A stretch of 64,000 nucleotides of DNA from assembly GCA_000934665.2 (NCBI GenBank), contig KZ538520.1:1-64000 (forward strand). Reading direction: 5' to 3'. Positions within the stretch are counted from its first letter, which is position 1. Each line of letters opens with the position of its first letter. The stretch comes from Catajapyx aquilonaris (lineage: Eukaryota). A model generated the notes under the pieces. It was given only the letters and a program-made list of their open reading frames with translations. It was not told where the DNA came from and did not search any database. Positions 22,211-63,252 of this stretch are shown here, one piece after another. The translations under genes were made by a program, and so were the position numbers.

Positions 22211-23190
22211 ATGGAGGATACCTTAAAGAGGCAGCAACACAGAAATATCACAAAAGCTGTTAATGAGCATATGAGACAAATAGAACTTGCCCTGCATTCA
22301 CAGCCTTACCCACTCAGCAAGAGAAATGTCTCAGTGGAATGTCATAATATCCGCAGTAGCCATGTTTGGAGATGGTACTGGATTTATATGTAGTGAAAAT
22401 GGCAACAGTTCCGGGAGTGATGCAAAATGCAACAACAATCCTGTTAGTGATGAGGTTGCTGTGAGTTCAGTGCATGATGAGGATGATGACAAGAGTTCAG
22501 TCCGAAATGAAGTACAGTGTTGTGATGATAACTCGGACGAAGTGAGCTCAGGTGATAGTGAATGGGACTACCTCTTTCCATTACATCATGAAGATGAAGA
22601 TACTGAACACCAGCCCAGCACCAATGTGAGTGGGCTTAAGGAAAAATTGAGAGACTGTGCCATTAAGCACAGAGTCAGGCAGGGTGCTTTGAATGACTTG
22701 GTTGGGATATTGGGGGGTTTACATGACGAGCTACCACGTGATGCAAGAACATTGCTGCATACACCTAGAAAGACCATCACTACGAAACGAGAAAATGGAG
22801 AGTCCTATCATTTTCGATTGGAGCAGTGTCTGGATGCTACACTTGAAAACTGTGTCCATCTTCCAGCAGATATAACTGTTTCATTCATCATTGATGGTCT
22901 GCCTCTGTTTACAAGTACAAAAACGCAGCTGTGGCCCATTCTAGACACTATATATATGGCGATAGAGGTTCTCCTTTTGTTGTGGGTATATTTTGTGGAA
23001 CTGGGCAGCCTTCACCACTAGATGACTGTGTCAGGTGTTTCTTGGAGGATTTGCAGAATGCTTTAGGTAGAGGTTGCACCATTAAAGATCAACATGTTAG
23101 AGTGAAATTACGTGCCATATAATATGTGATGCTCCTGAATGGGCATACCTAAAATGCATCAAGTCACACAATGGCGATTATGGATGTAAG
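22211..23190 (+). mobile_element. Degenerate EnSpm/CACTA (CMC)-type transposase remnant
   Basis: Frameshifted ORFs contain LPRDARTLLHTP, IDGLPLFTSTKTQLWPIL, PFVVGIFCG and CDAP...KCIKSHNGDYGC. The remnant is truncated at its 3' end. Confidence 0.75.
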
Positions 23191-23256
23191 CTTGCTTAGC
23201 TTCTACATAAATCCGGCACTGTGCCTGGTGCTTCCTCTTCGAGTCCAGTTGCTGGC

Positions 23257-24099
23257 TCAAAGTTCCCTCCCCCTTTGGAACTCGTCCCAAAGGGCGTTGA
23301 AGACCCCCTGCATCAGGCCGATATGAACTTGGTTGTTGGAGATGACAAAGTGGTTCCAGTTCCCGTAGATCGCCTGGTTGGTCCAGTTCAGGGAGCCCAT
23401 CATGCAATAGTTGCCATCTAATATCACAAACGTGTTGTGCATCCTGTACGACCCTTTCTCAGTTGCCACAGGTATCCCTAGAATGTAACGTTAATTTTAT
23501 ATTACAACAAGAAGCCTTTTCCCTCAATCAGTGCCATGTAAGCCATCAGTGTGCCAAGTTTCATCACTCTCAGTAGTCTGAAAGTGGGTTAGGTAGACCA
23601 CACATACAGACAAACTTTCTGCTTTATTATGTTAGATTTGAATCGTTAAGAATTGGCCAACTTTCATGCTATTTGACAGGCACAGCAAGTATGCTCAAGG
23701 GTTATCCAATTCCCTTACGAGACATTTCCCCTTGGCAATGAAACGATTAGTCAGTTCTCCAAAGAGAATCATTATTCTACGAGGACAAGTCGAAACATAT
23801 TGAGACTGATTTTTTATATACAGGGTGGTCCAAGTTCAAGTGTCGTTTTATAACGGCGATTAATAGCAGTGATTTTGCGATGACGTAGCAGCGACGCGTA
23901 AAATGTCCCACTTCAGCGCATCTTCGGTGCAATCGAAGTGGGCAATTTTACACGTCGCTGCTACGTCATCGTTAAGCGCTTCTATTAATCGCCGTTATAA
24001 AACGACACTTGAACTTGGACCACCCTGTATTTGTTCATATATTTCAGATCCCAATAAAAATGCAACTTGGTTGAACTTTGTTTTCCTCACTTTCTGATA

Positions 24100-24139
<40 letters not shown>

Positions 24140-25072
24140 TCATACCCCGTTATCAGCCGGCGGCTCTTTAGGGGGGAGTTTTGTTTTGACTGGAACTCTT
24201 TGCATTTTTACTTCGCTTTTGGGGATAGGATAGGGACGGAAGGAAGCGGCTGTGGCCTATTATTTTAGGAAACAACCCCGGCTGGAGGGACCGTGGGAAA
24301 CCACAGAAAACCACGGTTAGGGTTGCCGGCCCTGGGGATCGAACCCAGGACCTCCCGATTAGCAGTCGGATACCATATCCCCTCCGCCACCACTGCTTCA
24401 GTCACTTTCTGATATGTACTTTCGGGTAATTAACTACAAAGAGCATGATATTGTACCATCTGGGTGAAACACACAGCGGGATATCCTCCGACGCACCTTC
24501 ATTGATAAAGACGGGCACCAGGGAATTCATGGCATGTACGTGGTTATACTCGGTGATGATCTGCACTTGGACTCCCCTCCAATGTGCACGAAGAGTGGCC
24601 TCGCTCAGGTGCTTATGGGTAATCATGGCCATGCAAATATCTAGTGTCTTCTCTGTCCGATCCAGGTAGCCGATAATGGTCCTGCAAATTAATCGATTAG
24701 ATCTATGCAAGTCGACGAAGTCGTACATCATCGTGCATTGTACCCAATGTGGTCCTCCTTGTGTATGAAGGGTGTCATGTCGATGTCCACCTCATTGACA
24801 CCTAGCTTACTGAAGCGCCAAGCAGGCTTCCTGGCGCATGGGAAGAACATGGCGTACTCCATGGGCGTCACCCCCACGCCGTACTCCCTCTCCACCTCCC
24901 TCCTGGCTCTCTCTGCCTCCCTCCTAGCCCTCTCTGCCTCCCTCCTGGCCCTCCTCCCCTCCCTCTTCTTCCGCCCCAACCACTTCTTCACAACGTGGTA
25001 TCCCAAAAAAGCTGCCCCCAGACAACCGACACGCAGCAGAATCGCAGCATTCACCATCTCACTCACTTTCAT
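23257..25072 (-). CDS. PLD6: PLD6/Zucchini (mitochondrial phospholipase D-family nuclease)-like protein, 3 exons, ~244 aa, with a non-canonical HKD motif
   Basis: Exons 25072-24744, 24681-24497 and 23477-23257, with GT-AG introns (62 nt and ~1 kb) and consistent phases (735 nt). The protein has an N-terminal hydrophobic anchor followed by a basic stretch, then IIGYLDRTEKTLDICMAMIT, AHWRGVQVQII and MHNTFVILD...GSLNWTNQAI...FNALW, matching the single-HKD PLD6 layout. An alternative start lies at 25057. Confidence 0.85.
23821..24027. mobile_element. Tc1/mariner-type palindromic MITE in PLD6 intron 2
   Basis: TA|CAGGGTGGTCCAAGTTCAAG...CTTGAACTTGGACCACCCTG|TA; the whole element is a hairpin. Confidence 0.8.
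24100..24397 (-). mobile_element. tRNA-derived SINE with (TTA)n tail
   Basis: Minus-strand B-box (GGTTCGATCCC); body shared with 52270-52487; microsatellite tail at 24109-24139. Confidence 0.7.
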
Positions 25073-25104
25073 CCTCAACCTGCAATTAATAACCACAAAT
25101 TAGG

Positions 25105-25375
25105 ATATGCTTCGATAGGCAAATATCATCAACAACAGTTTGTTTGTCCAGGCTTGGTTGCCATGGACAAACAAACAAGGCTGTTCCATGCCATGGGTAA
25201 TGTAGTCACAACAAGTTTGTCTGCTTGTTTGTCCAGACTCGGTTGCCATGCTGGTCAAACAGACAGACAATAAGGTATATAGTTTCTATCTATGGATAAT
25301 GTAACCAACAACAATTTGTCTGGCTGTTTGTTCGTCCAGGGCTTTGGTTGCCATGGGCAAGCAAGCAAACTTTTC
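25105..25375. repeat. Degenerate 3-unit tandem repeat (~85-105 bp) carrying GTTGCCATG cores; related units at 30100-30300
   Basis: CAACAA..TTTGT..GTCCAG..GGTTGCCATG recurs, with cores starting at 25157, 25242 and 25347. Confidence 0.65.
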
Positions 25376-27811
25376 CTTTTGCTCTTGTAAGGTTATGTGG
25401 GTGGGTGCGTGTCATGTGTCCAGGCGAGGCGGGGAAACCTCCCGTCCGCAACAACCTCCCCTCAGCAAGTGAGCGAAACGAACAAATGACACATGTCGCA
25501 TCCCGGCAATAACAGGGGCACAGCAAGTCCAACAATGACGATTTTGACTTATTACTAGAGCAGGGTCCATGACCGAGTGCACATTCAGAATGCATATTCT
25601 GATTTAAAAAAATTAATAATTAGTAATTCTGATTATTCGAATGCTGCATCAATACCTGATTTATGATAACACTATACCAACACTATACAACTTTCAAAGT
25701 GCTCTCCTGTGAAATTGACTTTTTGGACTTGTGCCCCTGTTATTGCCGGGGTGCGATGTGTACGGCCACGCCGCACCGCTCTCACCGGGGGCCCACGAGC
25801 CAGGTCCTTGTCCGGCAAAAGTGTAGTCCAGAGGCCAGAGGCGGTGTAGTCCTTTCAGAGTCCTTTGCAGTCTGGGTAAAAGCGTCTGGCGCCAGAGCGA
25901 GAGGGGTATTTGGCGGTATGTATCTGGCCAATCAGAGACAGGCACGCCCCAGCGCCACAGGAGAAGTGGTGGCATACGCTAGTACTTCCGTATACAGTAC
26001 CTAGAATACAGTGTCTGAAAACCAACTCAAGGAATGGACATATGATAAGTGTTTTGTGCAAGTTTCATTGTAATCGGTTGAACCGTTTTCATTTAATCGC
26101 AGGAAACCAAAATGCCATTTTAGTCGTGAAAAGGAGAGTTCAGTCAGGTCAATCAATAATATTGTTGTCAACTCTCAATGTGAATGTTCTATTAACACAA
26201 CTCTAATATTAAATGCCAGACACTATCGAGCTTCTTGGACATGGGAAGGTGGACATCGACATGACACCCTTCATACACAAGGAGGACCACATTGAGTATG
26301 AGGTTTTGCAAGACAAGATTTTGTTTACAAGACATACCGGTAGTTTGTATTGACAAGTGCTGTACCAGCGTCAGTTACAGTACCGTAGTGCACATGGTGA
26401 GCAGGGAGTGAGAGTCATGTGGGCTACAGGCATACATGTTGCGGCCTTGATTTTGCATCTCTGAGGCAGCAAAATGAATTCCACAAGACTTCATGTATTT
26501 TGATAACCAGCATCAGACCTTAGTTGCTTTGGCTTCTCCCAATCAACCAACGGTATAATGTATTTCGAAGATGCAATGGCAGCATTCTCTAGCTGCTGTG
26601 TAAATATAGGCCCCATGCCATGGTGTGAGCTTGCAGAATGATGTTGCATTATTGAAATACCATTGATCTAATGAAGCCAAATTTATTAATGCCGGTTTGA
26701 AATTTGAATATAGATGCCAGCATGATGCTGCTCTTTGATAGGCTGTTATCACAGTAGGCAGGAGGAAACTTTCACTGGAGCTACAAATTTAGCAGACCTG
26801 CTCTGAAATATGCATTCATTTATTTTGATTGTGAAATGATTAATATTTATTATTGATTTAATATATTCAAAGATTGTCAATTTGAAATAGGAGCCATAGT
26901 TCTGCATGTAACTCCCTCTTTGATAGGCTGGTGCAACAGGCAGGCATGTTGGTGATCCCAACCAGATCCCAACCGACAGAGCCAGTATCAGAAGGGTAGT
27001 TCCAGGTGGCAGGTGCAATCCACAGCCATCCCTGAGATTTGGTAGTGTGGTTCAGGGCTGGTAGAAGGATTTTGAAAGGTATGTATGAGAACATCAGGAA
27101 ACAAGGTCAATATTATGGCATGCCATACATAATTGCTGACCACCTAAAGATGGTCAAGGCATGATGTGTCTGTGAAAGTCGGTGCAAACCAAGAGTATCC
27201 GGTAAAGGCGTAAAATTTTGTAGTAATGTGGGCCGGTGGTAGGGCAAATAAAAGAGGCAGTTACAGAAACCAATAGCCTACTACATAATTTATTACCGAA
27301 CAGTATATGATACTAGAGTGTGAAGGTGGTAGTCATTATTACACCACAGCATTTGTGCTGTTACGATTAATTTGATTGTCTTGGCACCCATGTCGGTTAC
27401 TTTTGTAGGGCAGTTTCACTCGAGTGAGACCTGGCGTTTGTTTATGTACAATTTTCAAAACTCAGCATCCATGCAGAACCACTTTCAACCTTATCTGAAA
27501 TTTTTTACTTTGGTGAAGGCTAAGGTCATGAGACGATTATGATGCTTGGTCCCCACTCACCACTGTAGAAAGGAGACATACACCAACAATTCGGGAATTG
27601 TCCAAATTAGTGGTATCATATAATTAGAAATTTAGTGAAAATCAAAATATTGATAAACCTTTGTGTTGAATAGGAGAGTCATAGAAGCATATTAAGTAAG
27701 TATGAGCTATAGGGTGACCAAAAAGACATCCTTGATGCAGAATGTACCACAATTTTCCTGTGGAACATGTCTGTATAATGTAAACTTGGATATCAACCAA
27801 GTGGTCCGCTA

Positions 27812-31420: not shown

Positions 31421-31753
31421 TTAAAATTTCAACTCCATTAACAAGAAGACACGAAGATTTGGATCTTCAATAGCTTCAATGGCTTTCTTAGCAGCAGCTC
31501 CCCCATCTTTGTAGTACTCTTGCAGCTCCTTCGCGTAGTCGATCCAAACGCAGTTGGCACAACCTGATGAACAGCATGTGGTAGGAGGTTCTGGTGGGCC
31601 CTCTTTCTTTTCCTTTACCTTCTCAGGCTCAGGTGGATCTTGCTCTGTGCAGTATTTATGCCGATGTTCAAAGCTGACCAAGTGTGTGGGTAGCACTGGG
31701 TGTCGATGCAATCGACTTGCGCAATAGGCCATCTTCCTCAGACGACCTTTCAT
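31421..31753 (-). CDS. OXLD1: Oxidoreductase-like domain-containing protein 1
   Basis: ORF contains PPEPPTTCCSSGCANCVWIDYAKEL...IEDPNLRVFLLMELK, the Oxidored-like signature. The N-terminus is basic, like a mitochondrial targeting peptide. There is an acceptor (ttcattctag) at 31769 and the first ATG is at 31753. Confidence 0.9.
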   Translation of the reverse strand: MKGRLRKMAYCASRLHRHPVLPTHLVSFEHRHKYCTEQDPPEPEKVKEKKEGPPEPPTTCCSSGCANCVWIDYAKELQEYYKDGGAAAKKAIEAIEDPNLRVFLLMELKF

Positions 31754-32239
31754 GCTACTCTTCAAGTACTAGAATGAAACAATGTTGATAAGTGTGGGAT
31801 TAATGGTAGCTCCTTAATATTGGAGTACTACACCAAAATGGTTTGGATGACTGGTTGCAAGTTTGGTTTGATTTTTAGGAAATGAGGCAGCACAGTCCAT
31901 GAAGTATGGCTAGTTGCAGGTGTATAGACAGACATGTCAATCAAAGCATTTTCAAACTGTGATACTAGACATGGTTAGCCTATGCTGAACATGCCCACTG
32001 CTAAGCCTATTCTTTCATCTCTTAGTAATTCTTGAAGCCCCAGCCTGCCAAATATATTTTTGCAGGAGGCAAAACAATGGTCACTTGTTGCAAGGTCTGA
32101 ACCATGGTCTGGCCTACATGGAGGATGCTCACACTAGTCACAGAAGTTTGACTTAAAACACCGGAGAAGGATTCATGACAATACCTTTCAAGCCTCATAT
32201 GGGCGTTTCTCAAAGTCTTGAACAGTTCGAGTGGTTACC

Positions 32240-36559: not shown

Positions 36560-37262
36560 CTGTACAGGTAAATTTTAAGGATGGAGCCGGACGCAAACGC
36601 GTGTTTTGGCCGAATCAGATATCTTGTTCACATTTCACTGCAGGCTGACATGATTGTTCTGCAGTGAGGTGCGTTCGGCAGTCGACACGGACTCGCATGT
36701 CTGATAACTGAACACGCCCGAGCACGCTCTCCACTAGCCTGCCATCTAGCCGAATTCAGGGGGAAGTAGCCAGTAGGCCTGGCGTAGCAACGTGATTGCA
36801 TCATCCTTTGACGGTGGTTGAGTGGAGCCGGCGTGAGTTTATCAAGCTGTAAGCTAAAGTTAGTACGCGAGAATATTAATAACTCAAATATTATGTTCCT
36901 TTCGGGATCAAATGACTTTTACAATTTAATGCGTATATTTTTGGCTGTAGATTGCCGTGACAGGCTTTATACAGAAGATGTGGCACTAAATCCTTGCAAA
37001 TAGAGAGTAGAAAGGGCATGTAAACGTCCAGTAGTTATTTGCTACAAGTAGCAGTGGGCGCGTAATAACCATGTAGCTGCTGCGCTTATTGAAAGTGTGG
37101 GAAAAATCCTGATACCCTTTGTCTTCCACCCCCCAGTCTTGAGCTGATTGAGCTGCCGGCTGCCGCACCAGTTGGCGTCTTGAAGACTTCAACTGGGCGC
37201 TCTGTGTAGTCGCAGGCCTTTGTTTCGTGTGCTGCCCGTACAAGAGTTGCGAGCTTGCGACC
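36560..37262. promoter_or_regulatory. Probable bidirectional promoter / 5'UTR region shared by OXLD1 (-) and the MSH6-like gene (+)
   Basis: CpG-enriched segment between head-to-head genes. It has a minus-strand donor CAG|gttagt at 36560, a plus-strand donor GGC|gtgagt at 36833, and an acceptor gtcgcag at 37215 upstream of the ATG at 37263. Confidence 0.5.
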
Positions 37263-38016
37263 ATGCCGAAATGGGATAACGACGAGGAAGCTGGCCCGAG
37301 TGGGATGTCCAAGCGGACACCGAGCCGAACTCCCAAGAGGCCTCAGCAAAGCAATACATTGTTGAACTATTTCACTCGAACTCCGGTGAGTGAGGACAAG
37401 CGAGCCCGGACTGATGAGAAGACCACCGACAAGGGCGCGACTTCAGGTGGCGATGAAGTACGAAGGAAGAAGGCAAGCCCTATGATAGTTGACCAATGTA
37501 CAACCCCGAAGCGGAAAAGGATAAGCCGAAGGAGTGAGGCAGGTGGAAACATCAAGAAGGAGTGGACTGCAGGTGACCTGGCATGGGCCAAACTAGAAGG
37601 CTACCCCTGGTGGCCGAGCTTGGTGTGTACATCCCCAAAGGGTATCACACAAAAAAATGGCAAGATCCACGTTCAATTTTTCGATGAACCCCCAACCAGA
37701 GCCTGGGTATCGCGCACCATGATGCGAGAGTATAATGATGCAGATTCTCAGCCCCCTGCCATGCCTCCCAAGAGCAAGGTTAGCAGAAATGACATTGGTT
37801 GGGATCAACCTAGTTGGGATAATGCTTGCAAGGAAGCAGTGCAAGCTCTTGCGATCCCTAGAGAGGATCGACACAAGCTGGTGGTTGAAATGGAGGAGTC
37901 GGGAGAAGAGCCTGAAGAGCCTGGAGAGTCAGACAGTGATTGCTCGCCACCCGGCAAGAAGACTCGCCAGGATCTACCTTCAGATTTAGAGGACTCGGAG
38001 GATGAGTATAAGCCAG
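37263..38016 (+). CDS. MSH6: MSH6-like N-terminal coding exon (PCNA-interacting PIP box + PWWP domain + acidic region); downstream MutS exons not found
   Basis: ATG at 37263. Contains a PIP-like box (QQSNTLLNYF), a PWWP domain (GDLAWAKLEGYPWWPSLV...HVQFFDEPPTRAWV) and an acidic stretch (DSEDEYKP). It ends at a phase-1 donor, CCAG|gtaggc, at 38016. The PIP+PWWP arrangement is typical of metazoan MSH6. Confidence 0.75.
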
Positions 38017-39422
38017 GTAGGCATAAAAGCATGAGGACAGACATGCCCTTTTTTTTCTCTACTGCTCAGTTGTAGCTCACAGAAAATTTTTGCCCTGCCA
38101 AATGGGTGATTTTACTGCAACCAACCCTGCAACTGCTAATGCAGATCAGTTTTAGCCTGGGTATCTGCAGTTTTGACCTTTACCAGTGCATAATATCTTG
38201 GTTGAGTGAATTTGTGTTGCAGGTCTAGCTTCACATTATTTGAGGAGTGTGGTGGGAAAATGTGATTACCTTAATTTTTGTCATTTTTTACCTCAGCACC
38301 TAACAACTATGTAAAAGACCTGACAAACAGTTTGGTATACTCAAAGTGCACGTATCATGCATGAAACAACCACACAGACTTTAGATCAAAACCCGAATTC
38401 TCTATGATTTGTGAAGAGAATGCAAACTTAAATTCTCTCTCCTGGACAATTAGATCTCTGTGGATTATCAGATTTTTCCACCACACCCCTCATTTTTAGC
38501 TGTCACTGTCATGTCCCTTGGAGTTTAAAAATGTTAATCAACAACAACTAATGCACTACAGATTCCATTTTATATTTATTTTACAAGGTGATAAGATACT
38601 ACATTCTGTAAACACCATCGCAACACAGTCACGCACCTTCCATGCATTCCTACCATGTACAGCTAAACTGAATTCCTCTTCAATACGCCGGAAAAAATTT
38701 AACACCACTAAAAATAACGTTTCTACTTTTTTCTTCAATAACTATTCGCAATTTGGTTTCTTCTTTAAAGGGCTGAATGTGCAATAGGGCGGTGCAGATC
38801 TGAGTTCAAAACCGAACAGTTCCACATGCGACAGGATTGGAGTAATGAATTATTTGTCTTATTTTTCCCCATCACTACTTCATTAGTTTATGACAAAGAG
38901 TTCTGCTATAATATACCGTATACTATATACCTAGAGGAAGTACTCCCTGTCCTTTCCCATTAGACAGGCTGAGGCAGCCTCCATCTTTACTTGAGTCATA
39001 TTGTTGTTCTAGCAGTTGTCTAGCAACTGGGACAACAACCAATAATGACAACCAGGGTCACCTACATGAGTGCCTCCCCCACCTAGACAGGGTATTGTCT
39101 CTCCGCCATATTGGAGCTAATTCACATAGGAGCTACATGCAGTGAAAAAAAAACAATTGATGACTTTCCAGTTGCACGCTCCTAGCGGCCAAATTTGACC
39201 TGCCATCAAAATGGCGGCGTTAGATATGCAGAGGCGGGATTTTCCTATCCCTGCCCATGTTAAATGGCCTCTGCTTGCTCGCCTCTGGGGGTCTGGCCCC
39301 GGGGCAAATCTTGTTGACATATTTTTTTCTGGAGTGAGGAGGTTCCTGGCCTGCCCTCACCAGGTTCCAAAACGTGTCCAGGAATATCCGGCATCGCCTC
39401 TTTCCACAAGGCGTAATGGGGC

Positions 39423-52998: not shown

Positions 52999-53472
52999 TC
53001 AGCCCAGGGCTTTGGTGTATACAATGTTCTTAGTTTTCCCATCTGGTGCATAAACATAGAGACTGTTAGGGCTTCCCACCCGTGACGCTCCAACATACAA
53101 CTGTCTGTGAGAGAAGCAGGGCTCTTCCAGTTGCAGCCCAGCTACCTTCAAAGTTTGCCCCTGAGACTTGTTGATGGACATGGCGAAGCTGAGCCTTGCA
53201 GGGAGCCTCCTGAACTCAAATGGCAAGTATGTCGGGATGACTGGTATTCTGGGAATGTGGACGTCTTCTCCCTTGCCACATCCCGAGAGAATTGTAGCCT
53301 GGATGACATAGGGCATAAGAGTTTTGACAGCAAGTCTAGTGCCATTGCAGAGTCGGGGTGGATCCAGGCTGCGAATGAGCATACTGGGATGAGTACCAAT
53401 TTTTAAAGTGAGAGAATGAGGTGGGACTCCAGGAGGTTCTAGTGAATAATTTAGAAATATTCTGTTGGGTAG
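52999..53472 (-). mobile_element. Helitron RepHel (PIF1-like helicase) C-terminal fragment
   Basis: [59 protein letters not shown]. Confidence 0.85.
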
Positions 53473-54080
53473 TGCACCACCTGGGTCTCCTCTGGGACTG
53501 TGTCCACAGACTTGTAGCAGTGGCAAGGACCGTGGGTGGCCCGGCGAGGTGCGAAGTAGTGGGCGCACGTGGTAGTGCTCTACCCTGGAGCCTCCTTGGT
53601 CTAGCGCAGGGTCACACTAATTCAACATATACACCCGACAAGCGGGGGCTATCGGGGGCTATTTTTTTACGTGCTTCCGTTCGGCTTTAAACCATTTATT
53701 GTATACTTAATAGGATTTATTCGGACTGTTTATTCAAAAATAACATAAGCTAAATTCTCACCAGAGGATATTTGTGGGTAAATATCAAGTGCGTCGTCAA
53801 ATCACGTAGGAAAAATAATTTCAGCCATTTTCACCCACGCATATGACAAGCAGGGAATATTGTAATAGCTGCATGAAACGCATCGCGAAATCCAAAACGG
53901 AAGAGGGGAAAGTGTCGGCCTCCAAATAGAAAAAAAAAAACGGGCAGTGTTTTCCAATTTCCAATCTAAAGTGTCATTGTGGAAGTCTTGTCTTTCATTT
54001 ACTGTTCCTTAAAGGATGTTTTGATAAAATTCGCAAAACCTATTTATGTCGTCCTAAACTGAGCTCCGCGCCCATTGTGC

Positions 54081-56214: not shown

Positions 56215-63252
<7,038 letters not shown>

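Follow-up and report, generated by a model that had tools for sequence, protein, structure and literature searches.

A transcribed Zucchini/PLD6 copy in Catajapyx aquilonaris with threonine in place of the HKD lysine, a candidate non-cutting paralog

The minus strand of contig KZ538520.1 of Catajapyx aquilonaris carries a three-exon Zucchini/PLD6 gene, with both introns of the GT-AG type and an ORF of 244 aa, in which Thr187 occupies the place of the HKD lysine. This copy, called HNT here after the altered motif, is transcribed and spliced, and its residues suggest that it is probably inactive as a nuclease. Our tentative reading, which we put somewhat short of an even chance, is that of a fold-preserving, non-cutting Zucchini kept by selection; its competitors are weighed below with the evidence that bears on each.

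Gene structure and read evidence

The window analysed comprises 64,000 nucleotides of the contig, and its features are collected in Table 1. An earlier note made from the letters alone had called the gene a Zucchini/PLD6 homolog, which agrees with our searches: PF13091 was matched above the cut-off in exons 2 and 3, and six out of six PDB matches of exon 3 are PLD6/Zucchini. The N-terminus has a best 19-aa hydropathy of 1.75 followed by KKWLGRKK, from which a membrane anchor is predicted. A segment similar to the helix encoded by the 21-nt repeat is also found in the paralogs, while a 12-nt insertion in the exon 1 wing region occurs in the HNT copy alone. The homologue of intron 1 is 53 nt long in the five close paralogs, and intron 2, at 1019 nt versus 69-81 nt in the same five, has been enlarged by high-copy repeats, both of its splice sites having outlasted the insertions.

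Table 1. Features of the HNT gene and of the surrounding window
Feature	Positions	Strand	Remarks
Coding exon 1	25072-24744	-	Hydrophobic N-terminal segment, then basic residues, 21-nt repeat helix, FFPC wing region
21-nt tandem repeat	24886-24965	.	3.8 copies; codes for Arg/Glu-rich helix between predicted anchor and domain
Intron 1	24743-24682	-	62 nt, GT-AG; skipped in X5 contig
Coding exon 2	24681-24497	-	First half of PLD domain; PF13091, E 2.4e-7
Tyr128>Ala	24629-24627	-	Exon 2
Arg150>Gln	24563-24561	-	Exon 2
Intron 2	24496-23478	-	1019 nt, GT-AG; skipped in X5 contig
Repeat presumed SINE-like	24140-24404		Inside intron 2
Inverted repeat presumed MITE-like	23818-24030		Inside intron 2
Coding exon 3	23477-23257	-	H-N-T-F-V-I-L-D, intact GSLNWT, NWNH, last helix, stop; PF13091, E 5.8e-10
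His185 codon	23439-23437	-	CAC
Thr187 codon	23433-23431	-	ACG, in place of HKD lysine (AAG in paralogs)
Asp192 codon	23418-23416	-
NWNH codons	23361-23350	-
Asn213 codon	23355-23353	-	AAC, in place of His-positioning Glu/Asp
A run	23276-23274	-	One base longer than in five close paralogs; just past last helix
Upstream repeat block	25402-25080	-	Common to five close paralogs; three CATGGCAAC motifs
Oxidoreductase-like domain	31421-31768		Pfam
PWWP domain	37152-38075		Pfam
Pif1 helicase piece	52999-53616		Pfam
RFX BCD domain	60883-61929		Pfam

Contigs from four of the five listed runs were compared with the window. Over positions 23377-23570, the contig from DNA run X1 shows no differing letters at a depth of 20.8, similar to that of the single-copy flanks, with the proviso that the DNA runs, X1 included, may come from the assembly's own sample. 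One 346-nt contig with a depth of 5.1 came from run X5, which belongs to a different sample and a different study. This contig exactly skips both introns and matches 23377-23476, 24496-24680 and the 3′-terminal 61 nt of exon 1 without a differing letter, the ACG codon included; the intron-skipping joins have a depth of 0 in the three DNA runs. The record of X5 states no kind, and we take the run as RNA because of the exact intron joins and the small run size. Its cover is absent over 23264-23354 and over most of exon 1, which says nothing either way, and its depth cannot rank expression among the paralogs. As the X1 and X5 contigs both carry ACG, and that of X5 is spliced, neither the Thr codon nor the splicing is an artefact.

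In principle the threonine could nevertheless stem from a mistake in sequencing or assembly, or from a rare private allele, since a single base separates ACG from AAG, the assembly's own sample may underlie the DNA runs, and the Asn213 codon falls, with the rest of NWNH, outside the listed contig pieces. We consider this highly improbable in view of the spliced contig from a different sample and study, the lack of any other letter or variant listed between 22900 and 23546, and the many correlated changes described below. The bases have thus been checked against reads, as the earlier note had advised, and its reading of HxKxxxxD as H-N-T-F-V-I-L-D holds, as does its view that an error is unlikely: the contigs give ACG, unchanged in two studies, and not AAG.

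The same note had taken the ORF and splice sites as intact. The open frame and both joins, seen in X5, uphold this, but a 1-nt insertion relative to the five closest paralogs qualifies it: the extra A shifts the frame beyond the domain, and the acidic tail of the paralogs is replaced by five residues, RGREL, and a stop. The contigs of DNA runs X1 and X2, in pieces covering 23141-23320, have no gap at the A run. The two next-closest copies stop at roughly this point as well, and the tail therefore looks dispensable.

The upstream repeat block ends in a putative acceptor AG at 25080. Motifs of the CATGGCAAC type, which we take to resemble an RFX X-box half-site, are present at 25157-25360 of the window and upstream of the five closest copies (1-7 copies within 600 nt), and were copied along with the duplicated unit; there are 0 copies within 600 nt upstream of loci L016 and L017. 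Over the whole window CCATGGNAAC is not enriched (3 matches, a number reached in 8 of 100 shuffles). Just past the 3′ end of the HNT gene, a 245-codon open frame on the plus strand (22284-23021) has no Pfam match, and a 55-bp fragment of exon 1, 87-96% like the paralogs, lies on the opposite strand at 26247-26301.

Zucchini and Piwi gene families

The genome contains at least ten Zucchini-like loci, the same ten being returned by searches with exon 3, with PF13091 and with a leafhopper homolog. Two further PF13091 matches, on contigs C101 and C1102, were rejected, as they read like exons of other PLD genes. His and Lys are kept in all nine other loci, seven of which show no break in the parts read, while two are broken; the active partners presupposed by the earlier note thus have candidates in active-looking paralogs 65-70% identical to the HNT copy. 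The five closest copies (L011-L015) are dispersed duplicates with approximately 87-92% DNA identity and the same introns and upstream repeats as the HNT copy. One of them, L014 on contig C3863, carries a stop, and another, L012 on C1748, reads HDK instead of HNK, an Asp that is found at this position in 4 of 228 outside domains drawn from the best 150 of 6275 matches. The other broken locus is the intron-bearing L016 (C1167), which has a stop, a frameshift of 4 nt and an inserted inverted repeat; close to it stands the intronless and intact L017 (C1697), which looks like a retrocopy outliving its parent. Loci L018 (C1549) and L019 (C7986) constitute a separate divergent pair on a long branch, with HHKF and, after a poly-Glu stretch, a candidate wing exon with multiple Cys.

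In a protein tree of 88 rows and 138 columns, built by a quick method, eight copies form one clade (support 99), within which the HNT copy belongs to a six-copy group (97), and the clade itself is joined (93) by proteins of leafhopper and cricket, among them one named zuc; an earlier nucleotide tree of 7 copies was unresolved. The paralog search and tree proposed in the earlier note therefore place the HNT copy inside a Zucchini-like clade of this genome, and its position among Lys-bearing copies makes the threonine a derived state.

Zucchini genes here form a birth-and-death family, and with two broken members in it the plain decay of a spare copy becomes a strong rival to retention by selection. 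On this account the HNT copy would be a redundant duplicate which was constrained for part of its history and relaxed late, once other copies did the work, having lost its lysine at no cost; it would now be drifting, yet transcribed, and without function. Such a fate would fit the stop in L014, the stop, frameshift and insertion in L016 and the HDK of L012, as well as the frameshifted tail of the HNT copy itself.

The Piwi domain (PF02171) has 57 matches on 31 contigs, and all three Piwi loci that were compared with PDB gave Piwi-clade proteins as their best match (20 of the 31 contigs were examined). By these domain counts, the expansion extends to the entire piRNA pathway. Scoring the Piwi loci by YRDG and the last His, which we take to be the slicer motif, we observed YRNG for YRDG in 4 of 20, and in 5 of 20 the last His was replaced by Glu or Gln. 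Slicer residues are absent from divergent Piwi copies on contigs C5214, C7657, C3711 and C2009 (L033-L036) and C1234 (L051), and loci L045 and L048 also lack that Asp of YRDG. L033-L036 are 87-98% alike with an uninterrupted PIWI domain, and may represent a clade of several candidate pseudo-slicers, whose case is perhaps stronger than that of the HNT Zucchini copy. Excerpts of two papers (PMC5521735, PMC11753138) describe Piwi duplications, not Zucchini ones.

Active-site residues and selection

The lysine of Zucchini is itself essential for activity, and a CCCH zinc wing is a feature of the active protein. For comparison with outside homologs we used the best 150 of 6275 matches of the intronless paralog plus one further protein, in which 239 domains were found; after 11 incomplete ones had been dropped, 228 remained, of which single-domain proteins supplied 78. 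No relative more than 43% identical to the intronless paralog appeared among these best 150 of 6275 matches. A homolog search with the same paralog among longer proteins returned 1 of 40 candidates, 35% identical, and a search for homologs of exon 3 among longer proteins returned 0 of 1 candidates, a weak result.

In this set (the best 150 of 6275 matches), the HKD lysine is Lys in 226 of 228 domains and Thr in none. The acidic site is occupied by Glu in 67 and Asp in 11 of the 78 single-domain homologs, and never by Asn; Asn does occur in 27 of the 228 domains, all of them among the 150 domains of multi-domain proteins, and for that reason we rejected the argument that the Glu-to-Asn change is harmless. 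The earlier note had also regarded NWNH as an altered motif. The Glu-to-Asn change in it is indeed specific to the HNT copy, but the His is common to four Lys-intact paralogs, and a double change was rejected accordingly. Many two-domain Zucchini-like proteins are present among the best 150 of 6275 matches, one of them named, from a dinoflagellate.

The intact GSxN motif (GSLNWT), together with His185 and Asp192, leaves room for an enzyme with altered chemistry or substrate, in which the lost positive charge could reflect a shift from RNA to a lipid or small phosphodiester, or which could serve as one working half-site of a mixed dimer with an active paralog. Among the best 150 of 6275 matches, 24 of 71 two-domain homologs pair a first-domain Asn with a second-domain Glu, which shows that an asymmetric site can tolerate Asn in one of its halves. 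The Asn-bearing halves, however, keep the lysine, which is absent in just 2 of the 228 domains from these matches, and PLD3 with one lysine is inactive: mutation of one of its two lysines, named both K418A and K418R in the portion of the source cited, abolishes nuclease activity (PMC10783504). We therefore regard continued catalysis as improbable.

The loss of nuclease activity suspected in the earlier note gains from further changes in the HNT copy, in which Arg150, Tyr128 and some six basic residues have likewise been lost. Column 128 is aromatic in 212 of 228 outside domains (best 150 of 6275 matches) and Ala in the HNT copy. Arg150, in a column 99% conserved among the same best matches, may be structural rather than catalytic, and its replacement by Gln is a CpG transition, a kind of change that suits decay. 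Conservation reaches at least 70% in 28 columns; the HNT copy keeps 25 of them and changes Arg150, Lys187 and Glu213, while the seven compared paralogs have at most similar-residue changes at the 28. The three changed columns represent 3 of 7 charged versus 0 of 21 other columns (Fisher p=0.011, a post hoc comparison chosen after seeing the data), and the sparing of the uncharged columns counts against decay; a total of three changes in 28 is not significantly below the neutral expectation (mean 5.1-5.2, P 0.17-0.18). In the wing, the HNT copy and its seven clade mates alike have two His and a single Cys, as against several Cys in insect homologs.

The domain of the HNT copy contains 7 Lys and Arg residues, down from about 13, versus 12-15 in seven paralogs, and none of the 78 single-domain homologs from the best 150 of 6275 matches has fewer than 10; neutral simulations reach 7 with P 0.0016-0.0029, and this directional loss speaks against decay. 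So do changes that need at least two bases, which make up 4-5 of the 12 polarised ones (P 0.046-0.009). Ancestral states are uncertain at about half of the changed sites, and a higher count of multi-base changes, 14 of 24, was set aside in favour of the 12 because half of the 24 sites were unpolarised.

Estimates of selection depend on how the branch is timed. Pairwise dN/dS between the HNT copy and the five close copies is 0.32-0.37, along a path that includes their stem. A codon model with four classes and free branch lengths gave a branch dN of 0.097 and dN/dS of 0.345, with a value of 1 not rejected (p=0.19); with two classes, dN/dS was 0.21 and 1 was rejected (p=0.003). Under a synonymous clock, dN/dS was 0.25-0.40 and 1 was rejected in all three codon models (p 2e-7 to 3e-4), while a synonymous rate 3-5-fold lower on the HNT branch would give 0.5-1.2, with 1 mostly not rejected. 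Parsimony assigns 7 synonymous changes to the HNT branch, 10 to its sister and leaves 9 unplaced, a split that fits a rough clock. Introns and upstream DNA have diverged far less (p 0.14-0.25) than synonymous sites (dS 0.46-0.55), and dS may therefore overstate neutral time; the GC3 of the sister copies, 0.77-0.83 versus 0.71 in the HNT copy, could inflate their dS. No sister-species ortholog of the HNT copy was found, and the copy is single.

Late relaxation draws on the failure to reject neutrality in the absence of a clock, on the high branch dN (0.097 versus 0.024 on the sister stem), and on the ORF, whose chance of staying open through a final neutral stretch of 0.03-0.05 substitutions per site is 0.50-0.31. 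If the whole branch were neutral, the probability of finding no stop would be 0.10 for a length of 0.1 substitutions per site and 0.005 for one of 0.25, and drift across its entire length is unlikely; the lysine change cannot be placed in time along it. Weighing these points with the directional losses above, we give decay of a redundant duplicate a substantial chance, although one clearly below even.

Possible role and comparison with known systems

If the HNT copy is kept by selection as a non-cutting Zucchini, a duplicated gene would have preserved the fold and the predicted membrane anchor while giving up the cutting of RNA. According to excerpts of the literature, the PLD6/Zucchini active site is formed by two chains (PMC10783504), the paired His and Lys make the phosphate pocket while an acidic residue positions the His (PMC10690185), and the groove is positively charged (PMC5714352). 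A homodimer of the HNT copy would have neither a lysine pair nor an acidic partner for His185 and so should be unable to cut, and the lost basic residues suggest that it binds RNA poorly. With less assurance, we infer retention as a non-catalytic subunit on the mitochondrial surface. The simplest role would be pairing with the active paralogs and damping them, the mixed dimer having one lysine and presumably being inhibited, not activated; alternatively, the protein may act as a scaffold for piRNA factors. The fuller proposal, in which such heterodimers would set the dose or timing of phased piRNA production within a piRNA-pathway expansion that includes a Piwi clade without slicer residues, strikes us as unlikely. 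Folding the intronless paralog from its single sequence gave a mean pLDDT of 42, and the model was set aside.

Because the Zucchini site is built from two chains, a dead chain is a ready-made brake. Should selection have kept this one, piRNA phasing would be tunable at the nuclease itself, and the changes would map the charged residues that matter for RNA; even if the copy is decaying, the pathway is unusually expanded, as ten Zucchini loci and the matches of the Piwi domain on 31 contigs show.

In the literature searched, mostly without subscription papers, no natural inactive or duplicated Zucchini was matched by title or start of abstract, and no publication was matched for a dominant-negative MitoPLD H156N. 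The engineered Zucchini K171A (PDB 4GEM) is reportedly inactive. In the alignment, Thr187 stands opposite the Ala that replaces this lysine in 4GEM, the difference being that the latter is a laboratory mutant, listed as K171A in an excerpt of PMC8004604. Among pseudo-PLDs, the FAM83/SACK1 proteins with DUF1669 and PLD5 have a degenerate HKD and no detected activity, and FAM83 is described as a protein anchor (PMC6008594, in part). Those are vertebrate families that mostly lose the His, whereas the HNT copy keeps His and loses Lys, is not their ortholog, and is a recent single copy beside active paralogs; no DUF1669 or two-domain PLD5 architecture was found by Pfam on its three exons, which encode a single domain. 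PLD3/PLD4 and two-domain Zucchini-like proteins resemble it in having Asn at the acidic site of one half, an asymmetry of two-domain PLDs described in the cited part of PMC10690185, but in PLD3/PLD4-type asymmetric PLDs both halves keep His and Lys, within one chain. The closest relatives are Zucchini/PLD6/MitoPLD themselves (PDB 4GGJ, 4GEL and 9LKX; PF13091), with which the HNT copy shares a single PLD domain after an N-terminal hydrophobic segment and the GSxNWT motif; it differs from them in Thr for Lys, Asn for Glu, the loss of Tyr128 and Arg150 and a halved content of Lys and Arg, and in being one of ten loci in a single genome, within an eight-copy clade with one wing Cys.
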